Source: Desulfobacterales bacterium CG2_30_60_27 (GTDB lineage: Bacteria > Desulfobacterota > Desulfobulbia > Desulfobulbales > CG2-30-60-27). From it: a stretch of 64,000 bases of DNA. Shown here piece after piece: positions 1,542 to 49,073 of the stretch (its first letter is position 1; each line of letters begins with the position of its first letter). The translations under genes were made by a program, and so were the position numbers. The notes beneath the pieces are model-generated. The model was not told the DNA's origin and did not search any database. It saw nothing but the letters and a program-made list of their open reading frames with translations. The DNA lies in the NCBI GenBank assembly GCA_001873115.1, contig MNYK01000110.1, positions 23,118-87,117 of the forward strand, given 5' to 3'.

Positions 1542-1640
1542 GTAACTATCCAGCTTGTGTCGGCAGTCAAGCGTTCCCGGCCTGAAAATACTTTTCCAGT
1601 CCGGGAACTCCCCTGGGTTGCGGTTCTGCTGGATAGTTAC
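1542..1640. mobile_element. Family-A MITE, 99-bp form (TIR GTAACTATCCAGC / GCTGGATAGTTAC)
   Basis: Terminal inverted repeats are present. A perfect 8-bp direct duplication ATTTTTTC flanks it at 1534-1541 and 1641-1648. Homologous copies lie at 12723, 18077, 37325, 46904 and 48765. Confidence 0.85.
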
Positions 1641-3178
1641 ATTTTTTCAAGCTTTTTTATCTTGGCCAGCATGTCGGCCGCCTTGCCGTGCAGGTCGGCG
1701 TTGTCAGCGGTCAGCCTCATCGTCTCTTTAAGATGAAAGCGGGCCGACTCAACGTCGTCCTCAAACCAGTAATAGAGCCCGAGTTGGTAATGGCCGGCCG
1801 CTTTGTCGCCTTGGTGGGCCATGATCTGGCCGATCTGGTAATGGAGGCGCGACAGGGTGGGCAGGGCCTGCAAAATTTCCTCGTACAGGGCCAGGGCCTC
1901 GGGGTAACGCCCTTGTTGTTCCAAGGTTTTGGCAAGATAAAAGGCGGTATAGGCGCAGTCCGGCCGCAGGTCACGGGCCTGCCGGAAGAGGGCCAGGGCC
2001 TTTTCGTACTGACCGGCCTCGAAAAAGATTCGCCCCAGGTCGGTGCGCAGGATGGAGCGGTCCGGCATGATCTCCATCACTTTTCTTAGGGTCTCCTGGG
2101 CCTTGTCGAACTGGGCGTTGGCCAGATAGGCCTGGGAAAGACCATACAGCCGCATGGGATCAGGCAGTGTCTCCCCGGCCGTCGGGCGGCTGGTGGCTAA
2201 AAGGTGAACGAGGAGTTTGGCCGGATCCTTGGTGATGGAGAGCAGCCGGTACTTCAGGCGCTGAAACGGAAAGGGGTCCACGGCTGGATAGGTGGTCTTG
2301 GGGCCACTTTCCAGGAGATCCTGGATGTAACTCATGCGCAGGTCAGGATCTGGATGAGTGAGGAGGTAGGGGGGCATCTGGCTGGAGTTGAGCACGTTTT
2401 CCCGATGCATCTTGCGGAGCATGCCGACCATGGCGACCGGGTTTCTGTTCATGGCGCGCATATAGTCGTAGCCGACCCGGTCGGCCTCTTCTTCGTCCTG
2501 GCGACTGTACTTGAGCTGGGCGGTCTGGCCGGCCGCCATGCCACCGGTGATCAGGGCGCTGCCCACGTCGCCGCTGCCCGACGCGATGCCGGCCAGGACC
2601 AGGGCCAGGGTGGCGATGGTGATGGCCTTGGATTTCTCGGCCTGCTGGGCGATATGGCGGTGGATAACATGCCCGGTCTCATGGGCCATGACGCTTACCA
2701 GTTCGTCCTCCGTGTCCATGGCATCAATGAGACCGGTATAGACGAAGATGAGCCCCGAGGGCGCGGCAAAGGCGTTGAACTCATTTTTATCGACGATGAA
2801 GAATTTATGCTTGAAGAAATGCGAGTCCGCCTTCTGGAGGATTTCATTGCCCAGGCCAGTGACGTATTGCAGCAGGTCGGGTTCCTCGACGAGGCTGAAG
2901 TTGTGGCGGACAATGGCGAGCAGTTTTTCGCCGATTTCCTGCTCTTCGCCCACGCTCAGGGCATGGGCCGTGCGGACGCCCAAGCCGCCGCAAGCAGGGG
3001 CAAGTATCTGGGCCAGCAACGTGACGAGCAGCACGAGCCGGCCAGCCCAACCCAGCCTGGCAGGGTGGCGCAGTGGGCGACCAGCGGGCAATGGCGATTG
3101 TTTGCCGGTCGGCAGGCAGGTTTTATGCAACGGTTTTAAACAGCTCATAAGTGGGATGCCGGATCGCGCGTCCAGCAA
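1637..3178 (-). CDS. M48-family Zn metalloprotease with C-terminal TPR repeats (BepA/YfgC-like), secreted
   Basis: HETGHVIHRH (HExxH) zinc motif, N-terminal hydrophobic signal and a TPR-like C-terminal half. The stop codon TAA lies inside the MITE terminus. Confidence 0.85.
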   Translation of the reverse strand: MLDARSGIPLMSCLKPLHKTCLPTGKQSPLPAGRPLRHPARLGWAGRLVLLVTLLAQILAPACGGLGVRTAHALSVGEEQEIGEKLLAIVRHNFSLVEEPDLLQYVTGLGNEILQKADSHFFKHKFFIVDKNEFNAFAAPSGLIFVYTGLIDAMDTEDELVSVMAHETGHVIHRHIAQQAEKSKAITIATLALVLAGIASGSGDVGSALITGGMAAGQTAQLKYSRQDEEEADRVGYDYMRAMNRNPVAMVGMLRKMHRENVLNSSQMPPYLLTHPDPDLRMSYIQDLLESGPKTTYPAVDPFPFQRLKYRLLSITKDPAKLLVHLLATSRPTAGETLPDPMRLYGLSQAYLANAQFDKAQETLRKVMEIMPDRSILRTDLGRIFFEAGQYEKALALFRQARDLRPDCAYTAFYLAKTLEQQGRYPEALALYEEILQALPTLSRLHYQIGQIMAHQGDKAAGHYQLGLYYWFEDDVESARFHLKETMRLTADNADLHGKAADMLAKIKKLEKM

Positions 3179-3214
3179 CTATCCGGGTCGTCTCTTCGTG
3201 CCAGGCTAAATCGG

Positions 3215-5260
3215 CTATTCTGTGGTAATGGTGACGCTCTCCACCATGACATCGGTAAGTGGCTTATCGTTCGCATCGGTTGGCACGGTATTGATGTCCT
3301 GCACCACGTCCAACCCCTCCACCACCCGACCGAAGATGGTATGCACGCCGTCCAGCCAGGCAGTCGGTTCAACCGTGATGAAGAACTGGCTGCCACCGGT
3401 GTTGGGCCCAGCGTTGGCCATGGAGAGGGTGCCGGCGGCATCATGGATCAGCAGCAGATGGTTGGCCCCATCCTTGGGAAACTCGTCAACAATTTCATAA
3501 CCAGGCCCACCCGTGCCGTTAGCCAGCGGATCACCGCCCTGATTCATGAATCCGGCGATCACCCGGTGAAAGATGAGGCCATCATAGAAATCGGCCTTGG
3601 CCAGGCGGATAAAATTCTTGGTGGTCAAGGGTACCAGATCCTCAAAAAGTTGCAGCTTGATTGTCCCCAAAGTGGTCACCAGCACCGCGAAGCGGTTGTT
3701 CGGGAAGTTGTCACCAATGCCATCATGGTTCAGGTCGGCCCACTCCTCCTCGTCCAGCGGGAAGGAATCGTCGGCATCAAGATAGCCATCGTTGTCGTCA
3801 TCCGGATCCACCGCGTTGTCCAGGCCATCGTTGTCAGTGTCCAGCGGATGAATATCGCTGGCATCGGTGCGGCTGTCGCCGTCGTCATCCAGATCGGCAT
3901 TATTGCCAATGCCGTCACTGTCAGTATCCACCGACTCGGTTGGGTCCAGCGGGAAGGCATCCGCATTATCCCCCACCCCATCGCCATCGGTATCCACCGA
4001 CTCGGTGTCGTCCAACGGGAAGGCGTCAGCGGCGTCTAGAACCCCGTCGTTGTCGTCGTCCAGATCAGCATTGTTGCCAATGCCGTCAGCGTCGGTATCC
4101 ACCGACTCGGCAGGATCCAGCGGAAAGGCATCGACGGCATCCAGAGAGCCATCATTGTCGTCATCAAGGTCGTTCATATCAGGAATGCCGTCGCCATCCG
4201 TGTCCAGGTCGGCGGAAAATTTCTGAATCCGGAACAGATGCAGCCCGGTGGTCTCATCCGTCGCCACCAGCAGGTCGCCATCCACGGCAATCCCGGTGAC
4301 CTCGCCGCCGGTTTCTACCCGATAGACCATTTTGGGCGCCGCCACGTCATGGATATCCACCACGGCAATGCCGTTGTGGCCGTCCGCCATATAGGCGTAA
4401 TGATCCTGAACAACGATCTGGTAGGCGTTCTCGTCAGCCCCGGTAGGGTTAATTTTGTCTGTGGTGGCAAGGGAGGAGACAATAAAGTCAGAGGTTCTGC
4501 TACTATCATAAATATAAAGACCGCTGCCTTCACCAGCTAGCAGCAAATAGTCGCCGTATTTAGCCATGGACCAAATTCTAAAACTGGCAGCAAGAGTCCC
4601 AATCTGTCTGGTGGATGCGGGTTCTTTTATATCGAGGATGGTGAATCCATTTATTCTAGTGGAAAAAATCATAAATGATTGTGCAACATAGGCAAAATCG
4701 CCGTCGACGACGCATGTAGAGAAACCACCAAACTGGTCACCATAGTTCCCCAACATTGCCGGGTTACGTGGATCGCTGGCGTCAAAGACCGTGAACTTAC
4801 TGTTATCACTTAAAAAAAGATTGGTACCTCTGGAACTTGCAGACCAAGCGAAATCTTGATCCGCCGTATTGTAACTACCGACAAGAACAGGAAGCGTTGG
4901 CTGCGAAACGTCCACCGTGAACATCCCGCCATTGCCGGCGGCAACATAAACGTAATTTTCTAATTTTGTGATAGAAATTGGCTCAGCAGTTGCGTCATTA
5001 AATTCCAGGTGCGCTACCTGCTGGAATACATTCCCGGAAATATCAAAAACCAGAAGTCCTTTGTCCAGCGTGGCTACATAGACATAATCGCCATCTTTGA
5101 CCACGGCATGACTTTGACCATCGGTCGCGAACGCATCAAGCGCAGTCAGCCGTACGCTGGTCGTGGGCGAGGTGTTTGGCGCCGGCGCGTCATCACCGCT
5201 ATTGCAGCCCGCGAGAAAAAGCCCCAGGAAAAGACCAAACCCCACCAGCAGATGTTTCAT
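3215..5260 (-). CDS. Lipoprotein: seven-blade LVIVD-repeat beta-propeller + thrombospondin type-3 Ca-binding repeats + C-terminal cyclophilin-type peptidyl-prolyl isomerase
   Basis: ORF 3215..5281. Likely start is [19 protein letters not shown] (lipobox LAGC, ATG at 5260). Seven repeats of the YVYVA..G..V.D.S type. DxDxDGxxDxxD runs. Cyclophilin motifs [32 protein letters not shown]. Confidence 0.85.
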
Positions 5261-5489
5261 AGGCCTATTTATCCGTTGCACCGATCATACTCCCCGGAAA
5301 TACAAATCATAAAGTGCGGAACCATGCCCCGCCATTGCAAAAAAAGTCTGCCGCGGCTCCATTGGCATCGCCAGCCTCATGTCTGGCAACCAGGCTGCCG
5401 CGCCGCAAGAAAGGCAGTATAAACAAATTGTTAAAAAAAATCTTGGGGAATTAGCAAGAAAACCGTCCAGACCGCCGATGGTTGATCCT

Positions 5490-6635
5490 TCAGCGCGGGG
5501 CCTGGTAGCCGCCGGCCACCCCGGTAGGCGACAGCACGAGCTGCCAGACCTGGGTGCGGCGAGCCCGGAAGGAGCCGGCGCAGGAGAGCAGGTAGTATTT
5601 CCACATCCGGTAGAAGCGGTCGCCGTACTGCGCGCTGATCTCCGGCCAGCGGCTGGCAAAATTGCGGAACCAGGCCATGAGGGTCGTATCGTAATCCACC
5701 CCGAAGTTGTGCCAGTCCTCCAGGATGAAGATTCCCTCCAACGATTGGCAGAGTTGCCGTTTGGAGGGCAGCACGGCATTGGGGAAGATGTAGCGGTCAA
5801 TCCACGGGTCGATGGTGGACTCCGTGGTGTTGCTGCCGATGGTGTGCAGCAGGAAGAGGCCGTCCGGCCGGAGGTTGCGTCGCACTACCTCCATGAAGAG
5901 CCGGTAATTTTTGAAGCCGACGTGCTCGAACATGCCGATGGAGAAGACGCGGTCAAAGGTTTCCCTGAGCGTCCGGTAGTCATCAAGCCGGATGTCCACC
6001 GGCCAGCCCTGGCACCACTCCCTGGCATAGGCCGCCTGCTCACGGGATACGGTAACCCCGACCACCGAAACGCCGTACTTTTCCGCCATGTAGCGCGCGG
6101 CCCCGCCCCAGCCGCAGCCGATGTCCAGCACCCGCATGCCGGGCGTAAGGCCAAGTTTGCGGCAGATCAACTCCAGCTTGGCCTCCTGCGCCTCGGCCAG
6201 GGTGGTGGCGTTTTTCCAATAGCCGCAACTGTAGATAAGCCGCTCGTCCAGCATGCGCCGATAAAGGTCATTGCCGATGTCATAATGATGCCGGCCGACC
6301 TGAAAGGCGCGGGAGGGCCGCTGCAGATTCACCAGTCTGGCCCACAGACAGGTGCACAGCGTTCGCCAGCAGGTCACCCGTTCCGCCAGACCGGTGCCGA
6401 GCAAGCGGTGGAAAAAATGATCCAGGGCGGCCGCGTCCCACCAGCCGTTCATGTATGATTCACCCAGTCCCATGGAACCCCGGGAGAGAACCACCGGGAA
6501 AACCCTCTCGTCAAGCACCTGCATATCCCACGGATCGGCGCCATTGATCGCAATGCCTGCTTCGGCCAAAAGGCCCTGCACCCGCCGACGGAATATGTCC
6601 CGCGCCATGGCTTGCCTCCTGCTTTGGCGTATCAA
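5490..6635 (-). CDS. cfa: Cyclopropane-fatty-acyl-phospholipid synthase (SAM-dependent methyltransferase)
   Basis: SAM motif VLDIGCGWGGAARYMAEKYG and CFA-synthase-like length and C-terminal WRMWKYYL motif. Confidence 0.85.
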   Translation of the reverse strand: MIRQSRRQAMARDIFRRRVQGLLAEAGIAINGADPWDMQVLDERVFPVVLSRGSMGLGESYMNGWWDAAALDHFFHRLLGTGLAERVTCWRTLCTCLWARLVNLQRPSRAFQVGRHHYDIGNDLYRRMLDERLIYSCGYWKNATTLAEAQEAKLELICRKLGLTPGMRVLDIGCGWGGAARYMAEKYGVSVVGVTVSREQAAYAREWCQGWPVDIRLDDYRTLRETFDRVFSIGMFEHVGFKNYRLFMEVVRRNLRPDGLFLLHTIGSNTTESTIDPWIDRYIFPNAVLPSKRQLCQSLEGIFILEDWHNFGVDYDTTLMAWFRNFASRWPEISAQYGDRFYRMWKYYLLSCAGSFRARRTQVWQLVLSPTGVAGGYQAPR

Positions 6636-6713
6636 AATTCCTTGCTTGCCTTGATCGCCACCAATCCCCTATCTTTTTGATAGACGTTTACAAACAAAAT
6701 TGCAAGCCGGCCG

Positions 6714-8180
6714 TTACCGTGTCGTCCGCTGCCCCGCTTCGCCACCGACCGGGCTTATGGACCCGGTTTCCTTGCCTGGCATGGAACGCAGGGTAATAAG
6801 GGTGATTTCGCCGGGACAGTTGAAGCGCAGGGGTACGCCCGAGGCCCCGGCGCCCCGGTTGGTATAGCCCTGCATGCCATTGACCCGCCAGCGCCCCTCG
6901 GCGGTATACCGGGGTGCCCGGCTGTTGGTGACCAGCGGGCCACGACCGGGCAGGCGAATCTGGCCGCCGTGGGTGTGGCCGCAAAGATACAATCCCGGGC
7001 CATAGGCCGACGCCGCGCGGCAGGCCTCCGGGGAGTGGGCCAGCAAAATGCAGCAGCCGTGCTCATCCACCTTGCGGTAAGCCATGTCCAGATCATGCAC
7101 CTGGTAATAATGGGGGTCATCGATGCCGACAAGCCATAGATACTGGCCGTCCTTTTCCAGCCGCCAGGCATCGTTGACCAGCATGAGCAGGCCGGCCTCC
7201 TCGAAATCGGGCAGCATTTCAATGCAATCATGGTTGCCCAGCACCCCGAACACGCCGTAGGGTGCGGTAAGATTGGCCAGCAGGCGCCGCAGTTGCCGCA
7301 GGGAGGGGGCCATGGGGCCATACAGTTCCATGCGCACGTCGCCACCGATCAGGCAGAGGTCATAGGAGAGCGGCACGACCTTGTCGATAATCGCCTCGGT
7401 CAAGCCTTGCAGCCCGTCCAGATGGAGGTCGGAGAGAAAGAGGATACGGAAGCCGTCAAAGGCCGCCGGCAGACAGGCCAGTTGAAACTCCTGTTCCACC
7501 ACCAGGGGGCGCAGGACATTACGCTGACCCCGTCTGTACAGCCCCATGGTCATGAATAAGGTGGCGAGGAAGAGACGGTGATAGAGAAAATCAGGGAAAT
7601 GGAGGTAGACCTGATAGCGGGCCAGCGGGGTATGGCAGGCGCGCCATTCCTTGAGCCGCACCGTGGAGCGGACGATGCGAGAATAGTTTGCCATGGCCGG
7701 CCGGAAGAGCAGGAGCTTCCAGAAGCGGGCCCCGCAAAGGGCCAGGGGCATGAAGATGGCCACGGCGCCAACCGGCGCCCACCAGGCAAGATCCAGCACC
7801 GCGCCCAGATACCAGGCCGGCCAGAGCCCCTCTAGTAATTGGTCAAACACGACCACCGTGGCGCCGCTCGCCAGTCCGGCCCGGCGTTTCACGAAACTGG
7901 TGAGCAGGTCACCGATAACAACGAGCAACGCGGCCAGGCCAGCCTGCTCCCAGCGCACGCCCAGCAGGGGAAAGACCAGGCTGCCGCCGGCCAGGATCGC
8001 CAGCACTCCCCGCAGGGTCTTGTGGGGCCCGAACAGGGGTTGACCATCAAGCCAGTGGCCGCCACCGTCCACGGGCCGGGCGAAGCGGTCGGCCGTAAGC
8101 AGGCTGGCCAGGGGCGGCAGCAGGTTGGCCCAGAGCAGAAAACCGGCGATGCGTAAAAGATCCATCATGGTCCTGCCCAA
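6714..8180 (-). CDS. Fusion protein: N-terminal CarS-like (CDP-archaeol synthase / DUF46-type) membrane domain + C-terminal calcineurin-like metallophosphoesterase
   Basis: N-terminal part has RPVDGG..DG.PLFGPHKTLRG and GDLLTSFVKRR motifs in a polytopic membrane region. C-terminal part has LSDLHLDG, GGDV, GNHD and GHTHGG phosphoesterase motifs. Confidence 0.75.
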   Translation of the reverse strand: MGRTMMDLLRIAGFLLWANLLPPLASLLTADRFARPVDGGGHWLDGQPLFGPHKTLRGVLAILAGGSLVFPLLGVRWEQAGLAALLVVIGDLLTSFVKRRAGLASGATVVVFDQLLEGLWPAWYLGAVLDLAWWAPVGAVAIFMPLALCGARFWKLLLFRPAMANYSRIVRSTVRLKEWRACHTPLARYQVYLHFPDFLYHRLFLATLFMTMGLYRRGQRNVLRPLVVEQEFQLACLPAAFDGFRILFLSDLHLDGLQGLTEAIIDKVVPLSYDLCLIGGDVRMELYGPMAPSLRQLRRLLANLTAPYGVFGVLGNHDCIEMLPDFEEAGLLMLVNDAWRLEKDGQYLWLVGIDDPHYYQVHDLDMAYRKVDEHGCCILLAHSPEACRAASAYGPGLYLCGHTHGGQIRLPGRGPLVTNSRAPRYTAEGRWRVNGMQGYTNRGAGASGVPLRFNCPGEITLITLRSMPGKETGSISPVGGEAGQRTTR

Positions 8181-8187
8181 AAAGCCG

Positions 8188-8931: not shown

Positions 8932-8932
8932 G

Positions 8933-12422: not shown

Positions 12423-12482
12423 CCCTGTTTATCCCGAGCACCAGACAATCGCCTGCCTTTTCCACGAGGCTTGACGATCAGG

Positions 12483-12656
12483 ATATTCAGGCAGGTATTC
12501 TGACTCCCTCTCCTCTTGACGGCCTTCCCGTCCCGTGGCAGAAAAGTGTCAAAAGGTTCCCCTTTCTCATGAGCTAAAAGGGGGAGAGGTTACAGCGGCG
12601 GGTCCGTTCCCGGTTTGCACGGGATTCCCTGTTACGTCGCAAGGACACCTGAATAT
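12483..12656 (-). promoter_or_regulatory. Cobalamin (B12) riboswitch aptamer
   Basis: Minus-strand RNA carries the core AACAGGGAAUCCCGUGCAAACCGGGAACGGACCCGCCGCUGUAACC, the B12-box variant UGCCACGGGACGGGAAGGC and the 3' element GAGUCAGAAUACCUGCC. It is closed by a perfect P1 helix AUAUUCAGG / CCUGAAUAU. Confidence 0.85.
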
Positions 12657-12663
12657 TAAAAAA

Positions 12664-12692
12664 ATCATACAGGGAAAGAGCGGCAGCGGCAA
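12664..12692 (-). promoter_or_regulatory. Sigma-70-type promoter for the riboswitch transcript
   Basis: Minus strand reads TTGCCG - 17 nt - TATGAT. The predicted start falls about 7 nt downstream, at the 5' side of the riboswitch P1 helix. Confidence 0.5.
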
Positions 12693-12722: not shown

Positions 12723-12802
12723 GTAACTATCCAGCGGCACCGCCACCCGGGTGAGTTCCCGGGCTGGCAATGCTTAAATGCCGACACAAGCTGGATAGTT
12801 AC
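12723..12802. mobile_element. Family-A MITE, 80-bp form, inverted orientation
   Basis: GTAACTATCCAGC...GCTGGATAGTTAC termini. Flanking 8-mers are AGCAAGCG and AGCAAGTG (7/8 identical). Confidence 0.8.
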
Positions 12803-16706: not shown

Positions 16707-16865
16707 AGGTGGACAGTCTGTAGAAAAGTATTAAGCAAATATCGAATATCGAACACAGAATGTCGAATCATGAAGTTTTGTTTCGGGCCGTGATTGCTGA
16801 TTTTTGTCTTTGGCAATCGCAGCAGGCGGCGGGCAGCGCTATAGTCTAACCAGCCAAGCAACCTC
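16707..16865. repeat. Degenerate family-B-like element inside the Mla-type operon
   Basis: Begins AGGTGGACAGTCTGTAG (compare AGGTGGATAGACTGTAG at 29357) and ends CTATAGTCTAACCAGCCAAGCAACCT (compare CTACAGTCTAGACAACCT). AT-richer interior. No intact GTAAC termini. Confidence 0.45.
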
Positions 16866-18076: not shown

Positions 18077-18139
18077 GTAACTATCCAGCTTGTGTCGGCA
18101 GTCAAGCGTTGCCGGGCTGCGGTTCCACTGGATAGTTAC
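18077..18139. mobile_element. Family-A MITE, 63-bp minimal form
   Basis: Both TIRs are present. A perfect 8-bp duplication TACACAAC lies at 18069-18076 and 18140-18147. Confidence 0.85.
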
Positions 18140-29353: not shown

Positions 29354-29438
29354 GTTAGGTGGATAGACTGTAGGGGTTCAGTCTGTTAGCAATTGATATT
29401 ACCTAACAGACTACAGTCTAGACAACCTGAGTGGTTAC
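29354..29438. repeat. Family-B MITE, short/left-truncated copy
   Basis: AGGTGGATAGACTGTAGG...CTGTTAGC / CTAACAGACTACAGTCTAGACAACCTGAGTGGTTAC. The right terminus is intact and overlaps the moeA stop codon. Confidence 0.6.
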
Positions 29439-31665: not shown

Positions 31666-32697
31666 TCACCCCCCGATGCTGGCCATGGTGGGGGGGGTAG
31701 CCCTACGGCAGTTTGCCTCGGTCGCCAGGCCGTCCCGATAACGGTGGCTGACCACGGCCCTGACGGCGGCGGTGATCTCGTGGTCGGCGGCGTTGGACCG
31801 CAGCATGGCCTTCAGGTCTAGGACGCCGTTGTCGTAAAGACAGGTCTTCAGCATACCGGTTGGCGTGATCCGGATCTTGTTGCAGGTGGCGCAGAAGCGG
31901 CGGGAGTTGCCTTCAATCAGACCGATGGTGCCGGCAAAGCCAGGAATGGCATAAAGTCTGGCGGTGGCCGGCACGCCCGTCACCAGCGGAAGCATGGCCG
32001 GGAACAGGTGATGCAAACGGTCGCGCAGCGATCGGTTCGTTTGCGGCCGCACGTCGGGCGTGCCCGAGAAAGGCATTTTTTCAATAAAGCGCAAACACAG
32101 CGGGTGACGTTCTGGGAGTTCGGCCAGGGCCAGAATCTCGGCATCCGTAGTGTCTTCCAGGACCACGGCATTGATTTTGAGCGGCAGGCGGCGCACAATA
32201 CAGCCGTCCAGGGTGGCCAGCACCTCGGCCAGGTGGTCCCGCCGGGAGATCTGCTGGAAACGGTTGCGGTCCAAGGTGTCGAGGCTGAGGTTGATGCCGG
32301 CGATGCCCAGTGCGGCCAGCTCGTCGAGATAGCGGAGGGTCTTCACGCCGTTGGTGGTAATGTGCAGGGAACTTACCGTATCCATGCCCTGCAAGCGCCA
32401 CATGAACGGCAGGCAATCGCGCCGGGCAAAGGGCTCGCCGCCGGTGATGCGGATCTTGGAAAGCCCCAGGGCCGACAGCAGCCGCACCAGGCGTTCGAGT
32501 TCTTCAAAGGAAAGCATCTCCGCATGGGGTACGAAATCGACCCCGCATAAAGGCATGCAATACCGGCAGCGCAGGTTGCAACGGTCAGTGATGGCCAGTC
32601 GCAGATAGGTGATCTGTCGGCCATAATTGTCGGTCAGGCTGTCGATGCGATGGGCTCGGGAATGGGGGAGGGGATTCCCCCGCTGTGGCGCTGTCAT
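31666..32697 (-). CDS. moaA: GTP 3',8-cyclase MoaA (radical SAM)
   Basis: CNLRCRYC radical-SAM triad, C-terminal CATCNKIRITPTG auxiliary cluster motif, terminal GG. Confidence 0.9.
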   Translation of the reverse strand: MTAPQRGNPLPHSRAHRIDSLTDNYGRQITYLRLAITDRCNLRCRYCMPLCGVDFVPHAEMLSFEELERLVRLLSALGLSKIRITGGEPFARRDCLPFMWRLQGMDTVSSLHITTNGVKTLRYLDELAALGIAGINLSLDTLDRNRFQQISRRDHLAEVLATLDGCIVRRLPLKINAVVLEDTTDAEILALAELPERHPLCLRFIEKMPFSGTPDVRPQTNRSLRDRLHHLFPAMLPLVTGVPATARLYAIPGFAGTIGLIEGNSRRFCATCNKIRITPTGMLKTCLYDNGVLDLKAMLRSNAADHEITAAVRAVVSHRYRDGLATEANCRRATPPTMASIGG

Positions 32698-32700
32698 GCT

Positions 32701-32812
32701 GTCTCCTTTCCAAATGCTCGGGAGGCGGGGCCGTTTCCAATCCCGCCCTGTCGGCCGCAGACCCTGTCACGTAGCGCCGTGACGTAGGTCTTTAGGCTCG
32801 GAGTGTAGCAAT
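32701..32812 (-). promoter_or_regulatory. Molybdenum cofactor (Moco) riboswitch in the moaA leader
   Basis: Minus-strand RNA reads ACACUCCGAGCCUAAAGACCU...CAGGGCGGGAUUGGAAACGGCCCCGCCUCCCGAGCAUUUGGAAAGGAGAC-AGC-AUG. It contains the hallmark CUCCGAGCC, CCGCCUCCC and GGAAAGGAG (RBS-embedding) blocks of the Moco RNA motif. Confidence 0.75.
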
Positions 32813-32841
32813 TTTATGTAGTCGATAGGTTTTCTGCTTCG

Positions 32842-33040
32842 ATAACTGCTCAGGTTGTTTAGCCCGTTAGGCTGTAGACTGTTAGGCAAAAAGCGGAGCA
32901 TATACGGAACACAGTACGACTTATACCGCAAGGGCATAAGTTTCGTATGAGCAGACGAGCTGCTCAACTCAGCTTTATATCTCGTGTTTCGCTTTTGCTA
33001 ACAGTCTAAATGCCTACAGCCTATAGACCTGAGTAGTTAC
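32842..33040. mobile_element. Family-B MITE, 199-bp long form
   Basis: Termini ATAACTGCTCAGGT...ACCTGAGTAGTTAC. Perfect 8-bp duplication CTGCTTCG at 32834-32841 and 33041-33048. The interior holds a GCAA-capped hairpin. Confidence 0.85.
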
Positions 33041-37324: not shown

Positions 37325-37499
37325 GTAACTATCCAGCTTGTGTCGGCAGTCAAGCGTTCCCGGCCTGAAAATACTTTTCGCTCATTCTCGGCGGGCGTCC
37401 GCGCCCTCCCGCGCATCCTGCGCCCGGTCGCGGACGAACCCGCGAAAAGCATTTCCAGTCCGGGAACTCACCTGGGTTGCGGTTCTGCTGGATAGTTAC
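37325..37499. mobile_element. Family-A MITE, 175-bp long form
   Basis: Both TIRs are present. Flanking 8-mers are CATATTTT and CATCTTTT (7/8). It sits between the RR gene and the oxidoreductase operon. Confidence 0.85.
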
Positions 37500-40916: not shown

Positions 40917-41041
40917 AAAACGAATGCCGCTATTTTACCCCAGTCACCGCCTTTTGTAAGCACAGTGTTGGGGTTCTGGACGCTTGCTTCCTGATCTCGA
41001 TTCCGTTCCCCCAATAAACAGCGGCCAGTCACCGAAAAGAC

Positions 41042-42274: not shown

Positions 42275-42383
42275 GGCGGTCTCCGTGATAGTATTACAAC
42301 ACCATAATAAATTACTATTGTTAGTATTTCAATACTATTTTTCCTTCAGCTCATGGCAACACTCGTCATACTCGGTTCCGCCC

Positions 42384-42428
42384 AATAAAATAACCGGCGG
42401 CCAGGGAATATCTCCCTGGCCGCCGGTT
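42384..42428 (-). terminator. Intrinsic terminator downstream of the PEP-CTERM gene
   Basis: Perfect 16-bp stem AACCGGCGGCCAGGGA / TCCCTGGCCGCCGGTT with a 5-nt loop, followed on the minus strand by AUUUUAUU. Confidence 0.65.
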
Positions 42429-42507
42429 TGTCAGGGCCGCGGTACTATCGAGTCTGACCTGTCCGACGAGTCCGACAGGTCAGACAGGTCGGACGAAGCA
42501 GGCAATG

Positions 42508-42957
42508 CTACCGCCTGCGCCGCGCCACCCCGATTAAGCCCATAAGGCCGGAGCCGAGGAGCCAGGCGGATGAAGGGGCGGGCACGGCGGACGGGGTCAT
42601 GAGAAAAGCGTGGTCATAGCCATTGATGAACCCAGTACCAACGATTTGTCCGAGGTCGTTGATGTCCCGCGCGTCTGTCAATGTCCACCCTGAACCGGAA
42701 GTAAGTAGATTGTTGAGATCCAGGAGGCTGCCTTCGCTGTAGAGGAAGGCGTGAGTTCTCCCCATGGCCGCAGTGTCGGATTGGCCCACCACCTGGCCGT
42801 TGTTGTTGATGCCAGTTGCCCGGCTGTAGTCCCCGCTAATTAAGGCGCCGAGATCTGTGATCGTGTAATTCGTCGCCCATGCCGGGCTGCCCAAAGCAAG
42901 ACTAGCCAATACCAGGGTAATCAGACGTGCCAATTTGCGTGGGGGGGATGCTTTCAT
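42508..42957 (-). CDS. Secreted HAF-repeat protein with PEP-CTERM sorting signal
   Basis: Signal peptide. INNNGQVVG...HAFLY and INDLGQIVG...HAFLM repeats. C-terminal VPAPSSAWLLGSGLMGLIGVARRRR (PEP-CTERM-type anchor). Confidence 0.8.
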   Translation of the reverse strand: MKASPPRKLARLITLVLASLALGSPAWATNYTITDLGALISGDYSRATGINNNGQVVGQSDTAAMGRTHAFLYSEGSLLDLNNLLTSGSGWTLTDARDINDLGQIVGTGFINGYDHAFLMTPSAVPAPSSAWLLGSGLMGLIGVARRRR

Positions 42958-43202
42958 GCTTTTCTCCTTCGTGATTTTCTTTTTTGCCGGGTTATTTGGA
43001 TTGCGCCAGAGATTTATCTTGCAAAAAAATGTACCAGATTGTTAGGTAGTCGTCATTTCCTCATTATTCCAAGACGTTACCCATGGCGTTCCCCGGACCG
43101 CCAGCAGCCGGCGTATTCGGAATTCCTGGAATCCGGTCCGGAATGGCGGAAAATTGGGTTCAGTACACCGGGTTCCGGACACCGGAATCCGGCAATATTG
43201 CC

Positions 43203-43230
43203 TTGCCCTCGCCCCCGGAACTGGTAGAAT
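43203..43230 (+). promoter_or_regulatory. Candidate sigma-70 promoter
   Basis: TTGCCC - 16 nt - TAGAAT, 34 nt upstream of ATG 43264, which has a GGAGAG RBS. Confidence 0.4.
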
Positions 43231-43263
43231 GGTCCTGTCATCCTGACACATGGAGAGTAGCCC

Positions 43264-43995
43264 ATGCCGCACGACATTCATGACATCCTCACCCTGGAGG
43301 TGAAAAAAGAACTGGCTGACCGTTACTTCGGTTTCCGCAAGCTCATCGAGGACGACTCGCTGGCGCTTGCCGACCAGATCCGGCAGCACTCCTTTATCCT
43401 GGAAAAGCGCATCAGCTTTGATCTCATCCGTATCTACATCCTGCTCAAGGATCAGGGGTTGATCCATGAGTTCCTCAATCTTACCGAGCTGAACGAGGGG
43501 CTTTTTTACGACCCTTACCTCACCGAGTCTCCCACCATCAGGCAGCGGGTCTTCGAGGGCCAGCAGTTGCGCGGCTTCACCCGGGCCAGTCGCTTCCGTA
43601 ATCTGATCTTCGATTGTTATGACCGCCTTACCTCCCACGTCCATCTGTATCGGGAGAAATACGCCGAACTCGAGGAACTGCAGAGCACCATCAGCGACGA
43701 AATCGCCCTTTTTTATCGGCAGCACGATCTGGGCAGTATCATGGGCTTTATGCGCTCCCTGGGTGACCCGGCGGTGAGCGGCGGGATGGCTGGCGGCATG
43801 GAAACCGACCTGGCCGACGGTCTGGCGCAGCGCCTGAAAATTTCAGCACCGCCCCCCATCGCGCAGTACCTGCCCATCATCCCGCCGCTTCCCGAACTGG
43901 CGACCCTCAAGCCTCGGCTGAGAGAGCTTGCCAGTCGAGCGTATCCCTTGCAAAATGCGGATTTTTTTGCCAGTTTCACCGGACGGCGGCGCTAA
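43264..43995 (+). CDS. Hypothetical protein (243 aa, helical N-terminal part, Pro-rich C-terminus)
   Basis: Clean ORF with an RBS and protein-like composition. No motif recognised. Confidence 0.6.
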   Translation: MPHDIHDILTLEVKKELADRYFGFRKLIEDDSLALADQIRQHSFILEKRISFDLIRIYILLKDQGLIHEFLNLTELNEGLFYDPYLTESPTIRQRVFEGQQLRGFTRASRFRNLIFDCYDRLTSHVHLYREKYAELEELQSTISDEIALFYRQHDLGSIMGFMRSLGDPAVSGGMAGGMETDLADGLAQRLKISAPPPIAQYLPIIPPLPELATLKPRLRELASRAYPLQNADFFASFTGRRR

Positions 43996-44287
43996 TCTCA
44001 TGTTTTTGTGTAAGTATTCAGGTGGATAGCCTGAGAGTGTTTAGGTGGATTGGTAAAAATATCCATGCGAGATCACACAAAGTTCAGAGTACTCTAAAAG
44101 GAATTGTGCTACCGCGGAACGGGCGGGTCTACGCCTGGCACCTGCTCCAGGGTCTGGGACAGGTTGGCCATTTCAGCCCGCCAAGGTGCTAACTAGTTCC
44201 CATCCGGAAACTATGTTTCCTTCTGGATGCTGTCAGCGGTCAGCTCTCAGCGTTCATCTGGGAACACAGTTTCCGGATGAACACCAA

Positions 44288-45352
44288 CTACTCCGATGGA
44301 CAGCCTGAAGGTGTTTGGGCCGCCAACTGGCCGCAGGCGGCCGAGATGTCGGCTCCCCGGCTGGTGCGCAGCAGCGCGGTGTAGCCGTGGTTGCGCAGAA
44401 TCTGTTGGAAACGCTCAATGCGCGCCATGGGCGATGGCCCATAGCCCATGGCACTGGTCTCGTTGCAGGGCAGCAGGTTAATCTTGCAGGAGATGCCGTG
44501 GAGCTTGCGGGCCAGCAGTTCGGCGTCGGTATCGGCGTCGTTTAGGCCGTTGATCATGATGTATTCGATCATGATCCGCCGGCGGGGGGGCAGGGGAAAT
44601 TCTCTGAGGGCGTTCAGCAGATCGGCGATCGGGTAGGTCCGGTTTACCGGCATGAGCTGGTTGCGTTTATCGTCATCGGCGGCGTGCAGGGAGACGGCCA
44701 GGTTCACCCTGGTTTTTTCCCCCAGTTCAATGATACGGGGGATGAGGCCGCAGGTGGAGACGGTGATCCGGCGACTGGAAAAGGCGAGGCCATAATTATT
44801 GGTTAGGATAGCGATGGCTGTAGCCAGTTGGTCGAAGTTGGCCAGCGGTTCACCCATGCCCATGAACACCAGGTTGTTGACGGCCTGGCCCTTGGCGTGC
44901 AACTCTTCGGCAACCGTGCAGACCTGGTTCACCATCTCGGCCGGCGTCAGGTTGCGCACGAAACCCATGGTCGCGGTAAGGCAGAAGCGGCAGCCCATGG
45001 CGCAGCCCACCTGTGAGGAGAGACATAAGGTGTTGCGGTCCTCCTCTGGAATGAGGACCGACTCGATCACGTTGCCATCCGCCAGCCTGAAGGCGTACTT
45101 GCAGGTGCCATCCTCGGAGAGTTCTCGCCTTACAGGTGCAAGCCAACTGATCTGGTACCGCTCCTCCAGTTCGCCCCGTATCGGCAGGGACAGGTCGGTC
45201 ATCCTGGCAAAATTTGGCATGCCTGGCCGATAGATCCATGCAAAAACCTGCTTGGCCCGATAGGCCGGCAGACCCATGGTGGCCAGCGTCTCGGTAAGTT
45301 GGGCCAGGGTATAATTTTTGAGGTCGGGTTTTTCCATAATCGTTAAACTCAC
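44288..45352 (-). CDS. rlmN: 23S rRNA/tRNA (adenine-C2)-methyltransferase RlmN (radical SAM)
   Basis: CLSSQVGCAMGCRFCLT cluster motif, GMGEPLAN, C-terminal catalytic Cys ISAACGQL. Confidence 0.9.
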   Translation of the reverse strand: MSLTIMEKPDLKNYTLAQLTETLATMGLPAYRAKQVFAWIYRPGMPNFARMTDLSLPIRGELEERYQISWLAPVRRELSEDGTCKYAFRLADGNVIESVLIPEEDRNTLCLSSQVGCAMGCRFCLTATMGFVRNLTPAEMVNQVCTVAEELHAKGQAVNNLVFMGMGEPLANFDQLATAIAILTNNYGLAFSSRRITVSTCGLIPRIIELGEKTRVNLAVSLHAADDDKRNQLMPVNRTYPIADLLNALREFPLPPRRRIMIEYIMINGLNDADTDAELLARKLHGISCKINLLPCNETSAMGYGPSPMARIERFQQILRNHGYTALLRTSRGADISAACGQLAAQTPSGCPSE

Positions 45353-45649
45353 AGGGCCCGCCTGGCTTCCGGCACCAAGGCCAACTGGCCGGTGATGGCC
45401 TGATCCAGGGTGCGCAGCAGGGCAGTCTTGTCACGGGCCAGGCGGCAGTTGATCGGTAGATAGTTGGAGGCGTGGATGGCGGCAAACCTGAGGTCGCTTG
45501 CGAGATCGGCCGCATCCTTGGATGCGGTGTCGCACCCCCTTGCAGGTGCCGCAGAAGGTGCAGCGGTTGTGCGGGCAGCCGACCGCCACTTGCAACAGAA
45601 TGGCATTGGCCTCGCTGGGCGGCCGGATGATGATGCCTTCGTCCCGCAC
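45349..45649 (-). pseudogene. Frameshifted/truncated radical-SAM gene remnant
   Basis: Frame 1 reads [38 protein letters not shown] (CxxxCxxC). After a G5 run (~45535) the sensible reading continues in another frame ([16 protein letters not shown]...). It ends after about 100 codons, abutting the rlmN start. Confidence 0.45.
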
Positions 45650-45679
45650 GCCGCATGCCCTGATCAGCGGGGGCCGATT

Positions 45680-46762
45680 TCAGCGGTTTGCTTTTTCAAA
45701 GTCATCCATGAAGGCGACCAGGGCCTCCACGCCTTCGTGGGGAAAGGCATTGTAGATCGACGCCCGGATGCCGCCCACCGAGCGATGGCCCTTGAGGCCA
45801 TGCAGCCCTCTGCTGGTTGCCTGCTTGGCAAAGCTGGCCTCCAGTTCGGGGGAGGGGAGGTTGAAGGTGACGTTCATCAGCGACCGGGAAGCGGTCTGGG
45901 CATGGCCTCGGTAAAAGTCACTGGCATCGATTCTATTGTAAAGCAAGGCGGCCTTGGCGCGATTGCGCTTTTCGATTTCCGCCACCCCGCCGATCTTCTT
46001 CAGCCATTTCAGAACCAGGTCGACCACATAAATGGCGAAGCAGGGCGGCGTGTTAAACATGGAGCCCTTGTCCGCGTGGGTCTTGTAATTGAACATGGTG
46101 GGCAGAAAATTCTTGCTCCTGCCGATCAGATCATCGCGGATGATGACTACCGTGACCCCGGCCGGCCCCATGTTCTTCTGGGCCCCGGCAAAGATGAGGC
46201 CGAAACGGCTCACCTCAATCTGGCGCGACATGATGTCCGAAGACATGTCGCAGACCAGGGTCTTGTCCGTGGCCGGCATTTCATGGAACTGGGTGCCGAA
46301 GATGGTGTTGTTGGAAACGAAATACAGGTACTCTGATTCCGGCGCCACCTCGTACTCGCCAGAGGTTGGCACCCGGTCAAAGTTGCTGGACTCGCTGGAG
46401 TAGGCGACCTGTACGTTGCCGAACAGTTTCGCCTCCTTGATGGCATTCCTGGCCCAGACCCCGGTATTAAGGTAGGTGGCGGTCTGGCCGGGGCTCAAGA
46501 GGTTCATGGCCACCATGGCGAACTGGGTGGAGGCGCCGCCCTGCAAGAAGAGGACCTTGTAGTTGGCCGGAATGCCCATGAGTTGGCGGAGCAGGGCCTC
46601 GGCCTCATCGATCACGGCCATGAACTCCTTGCTGCGGTGGCTCATCTCAATAAGGCCGATGCCGCTATCCTGGAAATTGACAATATCCTTGGCCGCCTGG
46701 GTCAGTACCTCATAGGGCAGAGTGGCGGGGCCGGGACTGAAATTGAAGACTCTTTCAGGCAT
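45680..46762 (-). CDS. serC: Phosphoserine aminotransferase
   Basis: ORF 45680..46798, start taken at MPERVFNFSPGPATLP. PLP site FAGAQKNMGPAG. Confidence 0.9.
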   Translation of the reverse strand: MPERVFNFSPGPATLPYEVLTQAAKDIVNFQDSGIGLIEMSHRSKEFMAVIDEAEALLRQLMGIPANYKVLFLQGGASTQFAMVAMNLLSPGQTATYLNTGVWARNAIKEAKLFGNVQVAYSSESSNFDRVPTSGEYEVAPESEYLYFVSNNTIFGTQFHEMPATDKTLVCDMSSDIMSRQIEVSRFGLIFAGAQKNMGPAGVTVVIIRDDLIGRSKNFLPTMFNYKTHADKGSMFNTPPCFAIYVVDLVLKWLKKIGGVAEIEKRNRAKAALLYNRIDASDFYRGHAQTASRSLMNVTFNLPSPELEASFAKQATSRGLHGLKGHRSVGGIRASIYNAFPHEGVEALVAFMDDFEKANR

Positions 46763-46830
46763 GTTGGAACTCCTGCGTGGGGCGAAGATTTTTGGCACGC
46801 TTATGTCGGGCGAAAATCAGATGCTTGGCG

Positions 46831-46839
46831 ATTATATCA
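46831..46839 (-). promoter_or_regulatory. Extended -10 element (TGATATAAT) upstream of serC
   Basis: Minus strand reads TGaTATAAT about 70 nt upstream of the serC ATG. No good -35 element. Confidence 0.35.
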
Positions 46840-46903
46840 GCCAAGATATATACCAAAACCACCTGTCTCTGCATTGAAAAAATGGATTAATCAAAACATT
46901 TCG

Positions 46904-47077
46904 GTAACTATCCAGCTTGTGTCGGCAGTCAAGCGTTCCCTGCCTGGCAATGCCTTTCGCTCATGCTCGGCGGGCGGCCGAGATTTTCCGCGCATCCGCG
47001 CCAGGTCGCGGACAAACCCCCGAAAAGCATTGCCAGTCCGGGAACTCACTTGGGTTGCGGTTCCGCTGGATAGTTAC
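46904..47077. mobile_element. Family-A MITE, 174-bp long form
   Basis: Both TIRs are present. Flanks AACATTTC(G) and AGCATTTC match 7/8 with a 1-nt offset. Confidence 0.8.
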
Positions 47078-47232
47078 AGCATTTCCCGTTTACCCGGCCT
47101 CTGTTTTTCCGAGACGACAAGACGGTTTTCCTGAGCTTTTGGTTGTGGTATAACCCACGGAAAAGTAATCGTCTTTATCGTCTGCCCCGATTTTTCGATA
47201 GTGCGCGGCTTTGAGGTTGTAATTGATCGCCA

Positions 47233-48198
47233 ATGCAGTTGACCAGCAATAATCAAACGCCACCCTATTGCCGGGGCCATATCGACCTGCCGGTGGTGGT
47301 AATCGCCGGCCCCACCGCGGTTGGCAAGACCGCTCTGGCCCTGGCCATTGCCGAGCGCTCCTCCGGTGAAATCGTTGGCGCCGACTCCATGCAGGTCTAC
47401 CGCCACATGGACATTGGCACGGCCAAGCCGACTCGGGAGGAAATGGGCCGGGTTCGCCATCACCTTATTGACGTGGCGGACCCGGATGAGCAATATCAGG
47501 CGGCCCGCTATGCGGCCGAGGCCTTGCAGGCCTGTTTCGACATCACGGCCCGGGGCAAGGTGCCCCTGGTGGTGGGCGGGACCGGTCTCTACATCCATGC
47601 CTTGATCCACGGGGTGTTCGCCATGCCGTTGGTGGACGCCACGGTCCGCGCCGACTTGCGGGCCCGGCTGGCGAAAGAGGGGAGGGAGGCGCTTTACCAG
47701 GAATTGCAACAGGTGGACCCGTTAAGCGCGGCGCGCATCCATGCCAACGACACCCAGCGCCTGCTGCGCGGCCTGGAAATTTTTCTGACCACCGGCATTT
47801 CCTGGTCCCGTCACCTTAGCGAACAGGTGAATCACCCGAATCTCCGCCGGGTTTTAAGAATAGGCCTGACCTGTGACCGAGAAACATTGTATGCCAGGAT
47901 CAATCAGCGGGTAGAGGGGATGATGGCCGCTGGCCTACTCGAGGAGGTGCGCCATCTTCTTGCCCTTGGCTATGATGGTGAGCTAACCGCCATGCAGTCC
48001 CTTGGCTACCGCCACATGCTGAACCATATCGCGGGCCGCTGGCCGCTGAAACAGGCCATCGCGCTCCTGGCGCAAGACACCAGGAGGTTTGCCAAGCGGC
48101 AATTCACCTGGTTTGGCCGTGACCCGGACCTTCATTGGTATGGGGTGGACCAGGAAAGGGAGATCTGGCAACTGGTTACCGAGTTTCTGGGTATCTGA
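47233..48198 (+). CDS. miaA: tRNA dimethylallyltransferase
   Basis: P-loop GPTAVGKT, DSMQVYRHMDIGTAKP, RQFTWF. Confidence 0.9.
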   Translation: MQLTSNNQTPPYCRGHIDLPVVVIAGPTAVGKTALALAIAERSSGEIVGADSMQVYRHMDIGTAKPTREEMGRVRHHLIDVADPDEQYQAARYAAEALQACFDITARGKVPLVVGGTGLYIHALIHGVFAMPLVDATVRADLRARLAKEGREALYQELQQVDPLSAARIHANDTQRLLRGLEIFLTTGISWSRHLSEQVNHPNLRRVLRIGLTCDRETLYARINQRVEGMMAAGLLEEVRHLLALGYDGELTAMQSLGYRHMLNHIAGRWPLKQAIALLAQDTRRFAKRQFTWFGRDPDLHWYGVDQEREIWQLVTEFLGI

Positions 48199-48222
48199 CC
48201 AATACAGAGGATCAATCGGGTT

Positions 48223-48768
48223 ATGAATATTCCCAATATCATTTCCATGCTGCGCATCCTGCTTGTTCCTTTGCTGGTGATCTTTCTCCTGCAGGGCAAA
48301 ATCCATTTTGCCCTGCTCGTCTTTTTGCTGGCCGGGCTAAGCGATGCGGTTGACGGTTTCCTGGCCAGACTGCTGCATCAGCAAACCTCGATCGGCGCCT
48401 TCATCGATCCACTGGCCGACAAACTGCTCATCAACACCGCCTTCGTTACCCTGGGCATCCTGGGTATCATGCCCGGCTGGCTGGCCGTGCTGGTGGTGAG
48501 CCGTGACATTATCATCCTGGCCGGCATTCTGGTGCTCATGCTGACCGGCGATCGGACCATGGAAATCCGGCCAACCCTGGACAGCAAGATCAACACGGTG
48601 ACCCAGCTTGGTTGTGTGTGCTTCTTTCTGGCCTTTGATCTGCTGGGGCCAATACAGGCCTGGGAGCAAGCGATTCTCCTGGTAACCGCTTTTTTCACCA
48701 TGGTGTCCGGATTCCGCTACATTGTCATTGGCTTTCGCATTCTCGGTAAAACGAAAGATGGCGAGTAA
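48223..48768 (+). CDS. pgsA: CDP-alcohol phosphatidyltransferase (PgsA-like)
   Basis: DAVDGFLARLL...GAFIDPLADK motif, 181 aa, 4-5 TM segments. The stop codon lies inside the MITE terminus. Confidence 0.75.
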   Translation: MNIPNIISMLRILLVPLLVIFLLQGKIHFALLVFLLAGLSDAVDGFLARLLHQQTSIGAFIDPLADKLLINTAFVTLGILGIMPGWLAVLVVSRDIIILAGILVLMLTGDRTMEIRPTLDSKINTVTQLGCVCFFLAFDLLGPIQAWEQAILLVTAFFTMVSGFRYIVIGFRILGKTKDGE

Positions 48769-48938
48769 TTATCCAGCGGCACCGCAACCCGGGTGAGTTC
48801 CCGGACTGGCAATGCCTTTCGCGAGTTCGTCCGCGACCTGGCGCGGATGCGCGGGAAGTCGCGGACGCCCGCCGAGCATGAGCGAAAGGCATTTTCAGGC
48901 CGGGAACGCTTGACTGCCGACACAAGCTGGATAGTTAC
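48765..48938. mobile_element. Family-A MITE, 174-bp long form, inverted orientation (left TIR variant GTAATTATCCAGC)
   Basis: Full-length homolog of the copies at 37325 and 46904. No recognisable TSD. It abuts a family-B copy. Confidence 0.8.
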
Positions 48939-48957
48939 ATATTATTTTGTTATTACA

Positions 48958-49073
48958 GTAACAGCTCAGGTTGTTTAGCCAGTTAGGCTGTAGACTGTTA
49001 GGCAAAGAAACGGAGCGTATTTCGCTGTTGCTAACAGTCTAAATGCCTACAGCCTATAGACCTGAGTAGTTAC
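48958..49073. mobile_element. Family-B MITE, 116-bp form
   Basis: Termini GTAACAGCTCAGGT...ACCTGAGTAGTTAC. Perfect 8-bp duplication TTATTACA at 48950-48957 and 49074-49081. Confidence 0.85.

Follow-up and report, generated by a model that had tools for sequence, protein, structure and literature searches.

Two repeat families in the window

The window analysed here is a 64,000-nt stretch of DNA from Desulfobacterales bacterium CG2_30_60_27 (contig MNYK01000110.1, positions 23,118-87,117). The window genes checked are all housekeeping genes, and among them lie the copies of two families of short repeats with inverted termini, here called Family A and Family B, which together occupy ~1.3 kb, or 2% of the window, by their coordinates. 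These repeats, treated below as MITEs (transposable elements that are miniature and end in inverted repeats), and their relationship to insertion sequences (ISs) of the ISBst12 group are the subject of this study.

Family A is sharply bounded by the inverted termini GTAACTATCCAGC...GCTGGATAGTTAC, and a search for the terminus GTAACTATCCAGC that allowed up to two mismatches gave 13 occurrences in the window, where 0.6 would be expected. Direct reading combined with sensitive blastn resolved six complete copies and one internal fragment. The copy at 1542-1640 (plus strand), a 99-bp internal-deletion form, is flanked by a perfect 8-bp duplication, ATTTTTTC, at 1534-1541 and 1641-1648, and directly abuts the end of a Family B partial copy. 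An inverted 80-bp deletion form lies at 12723-12802 (minus strand), where the flanks AGCAAGCG and AGCAAGTG agree at 7/8 positions, and the copy at 18077-18139 (plus strand) represents a 63-bp minimal subfamily, composed of 35 nt of the left end and 28 nt of the right end and bracketed by the perfect 8-bp duplication TACACAAC. Longer copies comprise a 175-bp form at 37325-37499 (plus strand; the master minus 21 bp), with flanks CATATTTT and CATCTTTT matching at 7/8 positions, a 174-bp form at 46904-47077 (plus strand), and an inverted 174-bp form at 48765-48938 (minus strand), one terminus of which has mutated to GTAATTATCC. The internal fragment, 70 bp long and devoid of termini, occupies 52761-52830 (minus strand) and shows 86% identity by blastn to positions 95-164 of the 37325-37499 copy used as query.

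Family B ends in GTAACWRCTCAGGT, with inverted termini GTAACWGCTCAGGT...ACCTGAGTAGTTAC and the two ends reading GTAACTGCTCAGGT and GTAACTACTCAGGT; the terminus GTAACWGCTCAGGT occurs seven times in the window, compared with 0.4 expected. The family is represented by two complete copies, two partial copies and one solo terminus. The full-length 199-bp copy at 32842-33040 (plus strand) carries the perfect 8-bp duplication CTGCTTCG, as does, with TTATTACA, the 116-bp internal-deletion form at 48958-49073 (plus strand), which a gap of 19 bp separates from the Family A element at 48765-48938. A degenerate partial copy at ~1473-1533 (minus strand; 75-80% identity) retains the terminus GTAGCTGCGCAGGT, and a related partial element of 85 bp at 29354-29438 (minus strand) has one good terminus, GTAACCACTCAGGT. 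The solo terminus, the 14-bp GTAACTATTCAGGT at 63766-63779 (minus strand), matches an ISBst12-type IS end over its first 12 bases.

A previous sequence-only reading of this stretch had described two families with GTAAC ends and 8-bp duplications in the absence of a transposase gene, a description that direct reading, blastn and protein searches confirmed: no transposase was detected in the window by Pfam searches of open reading frames (ORFs) and called genes, by an IS66 motif scan or by tblastn with an ISBst12-type transposase. The copies it listed were likewise borne out, except that the partial Family B copy given as 1479-1533 starts at ~1473, that the one at 63766-63779 is just a solo terminus, and that a supposed Family B partial copy at 16707-16865 is not supported, blastn giving just an 18-nt weak match there. 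Its four perfect duplications (ATTTTTTC, TACACAAC, CTGCTTCG and TTATTACA) stand, and the number of further copies with 7/8 matches is revised from three to two (12723 and 37325).

Target-site duplications beyond the window

Proteins encoded in the window are found, identical, on contigs of many groundwater metagenome samples, including ERZ909569 (a 97-kb contig), several JGI samples and the metagenome-assembled genome (MAG) GCA_002772305.1, which together with k127_552204 of ERZ909569 represents the host population, and the nearest named homologues of one host gene belong to Desulfurivibrionaceae and Desulfobulbales MAGs. Contigs designated L plus a number are loci fetched from sequence collections, outside the window. 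Scanning metagenomes with the conserved left-end 20-mer of Family A yielded 115 such loci (0.9 Mb), nearly all from host-carrying samples, and de-duplication by flanking sequence left 70 unique complete copies.

A perfect 8-bp duplication flanks 41 of these 70 copies and a 7/8 match a further 11; in the control, in which the register was shifted by 1-3 bp, none of the 70 matched. Family B behaves similarly, with perfect duplications at five of seven unique copies and a 7/8 match at one. The duplication is thus of a fixed length, 8 bp, across many independent copies, as is characteristic of MITEs. The sequence-only reading had interpreted the repeats as a transposition footprint rather than REP-like amplification, and had named as evidence to the contrary copies elsewhere in the genome without flanking duplications; given 41/70 perfect duplications and none in shifted registers, the proposition that genome-wide copies lack duplications therefore fails, and the footprint interpretation is strongly supported for both families.

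Insertion sites are AT-rich and mainly intergenic or at the 3' ends of genes: the duplicated 8-mers are 33% GC, compared with ~59% for the genome, and A/T is favoured at positions -2, +1 and +2. In the 46 copies that measure 186-198 bp, the median number of differences from the consensus is 6 where the duplication is perfect and 16.5 where it has decayed. This supports a younger age for copies with perfect duplications and is the pattern expected for insertion followed by decay.

Size series and related families

The dominant size class of Family A is 195-197 bp (42/70 copies). Shorter forms of 175/174, 170, 145, 135, 130, 123, 99/98, 80, 65 and 63 bp were each found, on alignment to the ~196-bp master, to be the master with a single internal gap. 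Eight unique copies of the 63-bp form have one common deletion junction (35 + 28 nt), and some of them carry perfect duplications, which indicates that the minimal form itself transposed and spread as a subfamily of its own. Family B is similar in that its 116-bp form derives from a master of 199 bp. The nested internal-deletion origin put forward by the sequence-only reading is accordingly upheld, including amplification of the 63-bp form after the deletion had occurred; its longest window copies, at 174/175 bp, are themselves deleted relative to the genome-wide master of 195-197 bp.

Copies of both families range from 63 to 199 bp and have no ORF conserved across them, as expected of short, non-coding MITEs. 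The two masters form long hairpins on folding, one at -58.5 kcal/mol (z = -7.5) and the other at -41 kcal/mol (z = -5.7), and the elements gave no match in Rfam at gathering thresholds. The interiors of the two families are unrelated in sequence. In L026, a terminus of A type is found with an interior of B type.

Genome contigs were also scanned with the 14-mer GTAACTATCCAGCT; the matches listed were mostly due to chance, and ~35 Desulfobulbales-type loci were useful. Among the matches listed, Desulfobulbales-type MAG loci contain elements of ~150 bp bounded by the same 13-mer (L018:5607-5758, L067:3960-4113, L108:6050-6201 and L111:2242-2395), which are widespread in such MAGs and have a second copy of the motif, GTAACT(A/G)TTCAGC, ~46 bp inside one end. 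The same type is present in the host as Family C, with three copies of 151-153 bp (L194:9546-9698, L167:731-881 and L197:1907-2057). The internal motif may be an extra transposase-binding site.

Several loci were considered as complete ISs and discarded. The apparent IS ends in L100, L112, L005, L069, L074 and L111, which lack a close partner, either stand alone or belong to MITEs whose far end is degenerate, beside ordinary genes, and the inverted ends in L047 and L167 are MITE ends with ordinary genes between them.

The parent element

IS66-family elements have ends starting GTAA(GCG) and generate 8-bp direct repeats (PMC11946415), and all of the MITE termini, which start GTAAC, fit the GTAA rule. 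Within this family, ISDge4 belongs to the ISBst12 group and encodes a single transposase of 449 amino acids; it has the ends GTGACTACTCAGCA and GTAACTGCTCAGCA, an 8-bp direct repeat and a transposition mode reported as copy-and-paste (PMC12898284). The Family B ends match those of ISDge4 at 12/14 bases. One ISBst12-group element has been reported on plasmid pHTA426 (PMC8024623). We located it at L254:14107-15741, where it spans 1635 bp, ends in GTAACTATTCAGCCC and GTATCTATTCAGCCC, is flanked by the perfect 8-bp duplication GACGAGTT and encodes a 485-amino-acid transposase with the domains DDE_Tnp_IS66 (1.9e-64), zf-IS66 and DUF6444. Two further complete elements with GTAACTATTCAGCA ends and perfect 8-bp duplications were found, one of 1699 bp in L255 (1783-3481; duplication ATAGAATA) and one of 1704 bp in L271 (1742-3445; duplication GTAATATC). 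All three full-length elements end in GTAACTATTCAGC, which Family A matches at 12/13 bases. A search for a full-length IS with such ends had been proposed together with the initial description of the repeats; these three elements, which generate 8-bp duplications, have ends of the same type.

The junction between such an IS and the Family A terminus is preserved in L066, a Desulfoarculaceae MAG contig that begins inside an IS. The contig matches residues 391-484 of the pHTA426 transposase (tblastn, 47% identity, E=3e-18), and the order is the C-terminus of an IS66-type transposase, a stop codon, 41 bp and then GCTGGATAGTTAC, the exact 14-mer terminus of Family A. A protein search with the L066 fragment returned 1372 matches; PF03050 was present in 120 of the 120 listed, which are mostly partial genes on short contigs. 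An IS remnant at L090:3287-3432 retains ~42 transposase codons (residues ~396-437) joined directly to the 20-nt GTAACTATCCAGCTTGTGCC, a GTAACTATCCAGCTTGTG terminus, and looks, from its arrangement, like an internally deleted intermediate between a full IS and a MITE. Taken together, the full-length ISBst12-group elements with the same ends and duplication length and the L066 junction lead us to conclude, with high confidence, that the repeats are non-autonomous MITEs derived from ISs of the ISBst12 group, the single-ORF branch of the IS66 family.

Among ISBst12-type copies such as those in L255:2049-3481 and L268-L271, several have a transposase ORF that stops at a TAG within the terminal repeat (GCTGAA-TAG-TTAC). 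In several, too, the gene is broken up into overlapping ORFs, two or three in number (350 and 146 amino acids in one case), which could reflect either decay or a recurring frameshift.

L234 entered the collection through an exact 20-mer match within the coding sequence of a gene from an organism of lower GC content, and its similarity to Family A is due to chance. The same contig carries, at 835-2466, an unrelated 1632-bp IS with 21-nt inverted ends, CTAGGAGTCTGTCCGAGTAAT, that begin CTAG, and with a DUF772 + DDE_Tnp_1 transposase.

Insertions into termini and a unit carrying cbiA

Between samples, differences at corresponding loci are limited to rearranged junctions at MITE ends. One such junction is found in L002, from another sample and a sister strain with an identical ValS, where a Family A end is joined between GTTAC and CTATTCAGG, inside the counterpart of the solo terminus at 63766-63779 of the window. 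The Family A insertion (L002:80-184) is joined within this terminus between GTAA and CTATTCAG, and the DNA upstream of it differs from the window. A second Family A copy, at L224:676-870, is flanked by the duplication CTGGATAG, which corresponds to positions 5-12 of another element's terminus. The two insertions are independent and occupy the same position, between GTAA and the following eight bases (N8), which suggests a targeting of termini of their own type by these elements.

A larger rearrangement involves a 1977-bp unit, here called unit U, consisting of a 195-bp MITE, the gene cbiA for cobyrinate a,c-diamide synthase and a second MITE, inverted and truncated. It is present at L227:906-2882, L267:3581-5557, L159:1301-3277, L209:6805-8781 and L223:1-918. 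In L227 it has TACTTGAG on both sides, the sole 8/8 match among 72 distant pairs of inverted ends; in L267 its flanks are others (A...C'), in a dsrB-dsrD ... usp context. Across samples, three left flanks and two right flanks occur, combined differently between contigs. In host contigs the unit thus has the features of a composite transposon, namely inverted ends, a passenger, one duplication and more than one locus. The simplest reading is that unit U moved whole as a composite and that recombination, or an assembly cross-over, through the 2-kb repeat would then have exchanged its flanks; recombination or assembly cross-over through the repeat might also account for the pattern without composite movement.

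The unit U copies in L159 and L209 had been taken as candidate ISs and were set aside, as what they contain is the cbiA gene between two MITEs. The surroundings of the unit look IS-rich by eye (L227:560-905, minus strand; L223:919-5365). A fragment in region X of L227 (...HFMYYNFVRIYRTPAMAAEV...) resembles, by eye, the C-terminus of another transposase, with no match in Pfam or NCBIfam, and an ORF in the L223 flank is one that, by eye, we take to resemble the IS21 protein IstA.

Proposed mechanism and alternative explanations

In the mechanism that we propose, a DDE transposase with DDE_Tnp_IS66, zf-IS66 and DUF6444 domains would be supplied in trans and would recognize inverted termini of 13-20 bp (GTAACTATCCAGC... 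for Family A and GTAACWRCTCAGGT for Family B). The element ends would be joined to target DNA whose strands are cut 8 bp apart, and repair of the gaps would produce the 8-bp duplication. Masters of ~196 bp (A) and 199 bp (B) would have amplified recently, the series of 175, 99, 80 and 63 bp would have arisen by internal deletion, and transposition would have continued in the 63-bp form at the least. Two inverted ends could also mobilize the DNA between them as a composite unit. The copies, their termini and duplications, the deletion series, the age trend and the parent-type ISs with matching ends and duplication length are observed, whereas the mobilization in trans and the identity of the transposase are inferred, and one enzyme may or may not serve both families.

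Several observations weigh against this account. Two window copies lack duplications, that at 46904 being out of register and that at 48765 having none. No empty orthologous site was found, since other samples have identical insertions at these loci; the one difference, in L120, is a scaffold gap. Neither the window nor the ~0.9 Mb of host metagenome contigs yielded an IS66/ISBst12-type transposase gene, and the A and B ends differ at 3-4 of 13 terminal positions, so that the families may need different, related transposases. The hunt for a host transposase covered ORFs repeated in differing contexts, an IS66 motif scan and tblastn over 2.1 Mb of fetched DNA; two transposase matches considered as host-sample enzymes, P0059 and P0037, both came from other samples, and blastn of the plasmid collection with concatenated MITE sequences gave no match. 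The absence of a host transposase is weak evidence because multi-copy ISs usually break metagenome assemblies; many host contigs terminate inside MITEs.

An origin from another IS family that makes 8-bp duplications, such as IS1595, ISL3, IS256 or IS1, could draw on the fact that the duplication length by itself does not identify the family and that host contigs yielded no partner transposase, as well as on the fragment in region X of L227, beside one MITE, that resembles the C-terminus of a different transposase. The ends of those families begin GG or similar, not GTAA, whereas the MITE termini agree with those of authentic ISBst12-group members at 12-13 of 13 bases and with the ISDge4 ends at 12/14, and L066 places an IS66-type transposase beside an exact Family A terminus. 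The transposase-like fragment in region X of L227 is not part of the MITE, and neither Pfam nor NCBIfam gave a match for it. We therefore consider such a parentage very improbable. More improbable still is that the repeats are structured sequences akin to repetitive extragenic palindromes (REP) or bacterial interspersed mosaic elements (BIME), spread without transposition by a REP-associated tyrosine transposase (RAYT)/HUH enzyme or by recombination, or kept as regulatory hairpins or small RNAs. Their strong folding (z of -7.5 and -5.7), their mainly intergenic location and the position of some copies beside riboswitches or promoters fit such a role. Most young copies nevertheless have precise 8-bp duplications, none of which appear in shifted registers; the boundaries GTAAC...GTTAC are sharp; the ends are homologous to those of ISs with DDE transposases; and Rfam at gathering thresholds left the elements without a match. 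REP and BIME sequences are also distinguished from these elements by the presence here of duplications and of lengths of 63-199 bp with long inverted termini, and no RAYT gene was found in the window. Host use of individual copies is possible, yet leaves their spread unexplained.

Within the ISBst12-group derivation, the number of enzymes is a separate matter. The claim, made from the window alone, that both families share a transposase is supported as to its type, the ISBst12 group, and its stronger form, in which one transposase encoded elsewhere mobilizes both, is plausible rather than established. The opposing view, that Families A, B (and C) are each moved by a different ISBst12-type transposase, has in our estimate slightly less than an even chance of being correct. 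It is favoured by the 3-4/13 differences between A and B termini and their unrelated interiors, by the coexistence of at least three families in the host and by the abundance of diverged ISBst12-type transposases in related bacteria (the 1372 protein matches). Against it, the two ends of ISDge4 itself differ at 2/14 positions, so its enzyme tolerates some mismatch, the L026 hybrid joins A-type termini to a B-type interior, and one position in the terminus serves for insertions between copies that belong to different families.

A more far-reaching proposal, which we regard as unlikely, would join these observations into a picture of ISBst12-type MITEs that actively reshape Desulfobulbales genomes, preferring the termini of other copies (between GTAA and N8) as targets and carrying housekeeping genes such as cbiA between pairs. 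It would dispense, perhaps, with an autonomous chromosomal copy, the enzyme arriving from a plasmid, a phage or a community member, and the second motif of the 150-bp variant would point to multi-site transposase complexes. To our knowledge, the transposition mechanism of the ISBst12 group is poorly studied, and we know of no description of multi-site complexes for the IS66 family.

Gene context in the window

Rfam identified two riboswitches in the window, both on the minus strand: a cobalamin riboswitch at 12473-12667 and a molybdenum cofactor (Moco) riboswitch at 32685-32815, which heads the moaA operon. Upstream of the cobalamin riboswitch, at a distance of 56 bp, is the Family A copy at 12723-12802, and between them is a promoter-like site (12692-12664) identified by consensus match only. 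The Family B copy at 32842-33040 lies between the Moco riboswitch and a strong promoter-like site at 33079-33051 (minus strand; TTGACA-17-TAGATT), which agrees with 10 of 12 consensus positions and is likewise a consensus match only. If this promoter is real, the MITE hairpin would be transcribed within the Moco riboswitch leader.

Elsewhere, MITE termini supply stop codons. An M48 peptidase ORF (minus strand; Pfam) ends at a TAA (1637-1639) inside a Family A terminus; its stop before the insertion was a TAG within the end of the adjacent Family B remnant (GTAGC), and the protein C-terminus is therefore unchanged. The moeA gene (minus strand) ends at a TAA (29435-29437) inside the Family B-related terminus, and the stop of a CDP-alcohol phosphatidyltransferase ORF upstream of the 48765-48938 copy is the terminal TAA of that copy (48766-48768). 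The latter gene, together with miaA, is bracketed by a pair of Family A copies (46904-48938, 2035 bp) with left-type ends outward. The pair has the architecture of the cbiA unit, but its flanks agree at 4/8 positions and show no duplication.

Two strong inverted repeats in the window are unrelated to the MITEs. One, at 1427-1477, is a possible terminator with 20-nt arms of 95% complementarity, just beyond the 3' end of an MgsA-family ATPase ORF (50-1474, minus strand). The second, at 44201-44279, has 37-nt arms with 76% complementarity.

Significance and comparison with known systems

Other families offer well-known examples of MITEs, deletion series, composite mobilization and promoter-proximal insertion, and the general picture of MITEs is unchanged by our results, which describe a well-documented but essentially ordinary, recently spread kind of mobile DNA in an uncultured groundwater sulfur bacterium. 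What they provide is the assignment of a widespread, previously unannotated repeat class of Desulfobulbales and related Desulfobacterota MAGs to the ISBst12 transposase lineage; the searchable literature yielded no earlier account of MITEs derived from IS66 or ISBst12 elements, nor of any MITEs from Desulfobulbaceae. The 63-bp elements, the ends with one or two motif copies and the two insertions into termini constitute natural substrates for studies of mechanism. The repeats also explain the fragmented assemblies of these organisms, in which contigs often end in MITEs, and possible effects on host genes are exemplified by the MITE between a putative promoter and the Moco riboswitch, by the three stop codons and by cbiA, apparently moved by a MITE pair.

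The closest resemblance is to the ISBst12 group (ISBst12, ISDge4, the pHTA426 copy, ISKpn15 and ISAs21), with which the window elements share termini of the form GTAACT(A/G)(T/C)(T/C)CAG, an 8-bp duplication and, judged from the flanks seen here, AT-rich targets. Unlike members of that group, they are 63-199 bp long, encode no protein, form long hairpins and reach high copy numbers. Canonical IS66 elements (IS66, IS679 and ISRm14) similarly have ends that start GTAA and an 8-bp direct repeat (PMC11946415). They differ in possessing tnpA, tnpB and tnpC ORFs and ends that read GTAAGCG..., whereas the MITEs read GTAACT... and their parents are single-ORF elements of 1.6-1.7 kb.

Classical bacterial MITEs, among them Correia/NEMIS of Neisseria, MITEPsy1, MITEAba12 and the IS982-derived MITE of Cardinium, are likewise small, non-coding, multi-copy elements with inverted repeats and duplications, are mobilized in trans and occupy intergenic positions or the ends of genes, from which they can influence expression. 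Their parents are IS5, IS982, IS630 and others, in contrast, and their duplications are TA, 4 bp or 9 bp rather than 8 bp. Finally, integron mobilization units and the MITE-flanked integrons of Acinetobacter offer a parallel to L227, in which inverted MITE ends bracket a passenger and the 1977-bp unit as a whole has an 8-bp duplication of its own; unlike those integrons, the passenger here is a cobalamin-biosynthesis gene of an environmental anaerobe, known from metagenome contigs alone, outside the window.

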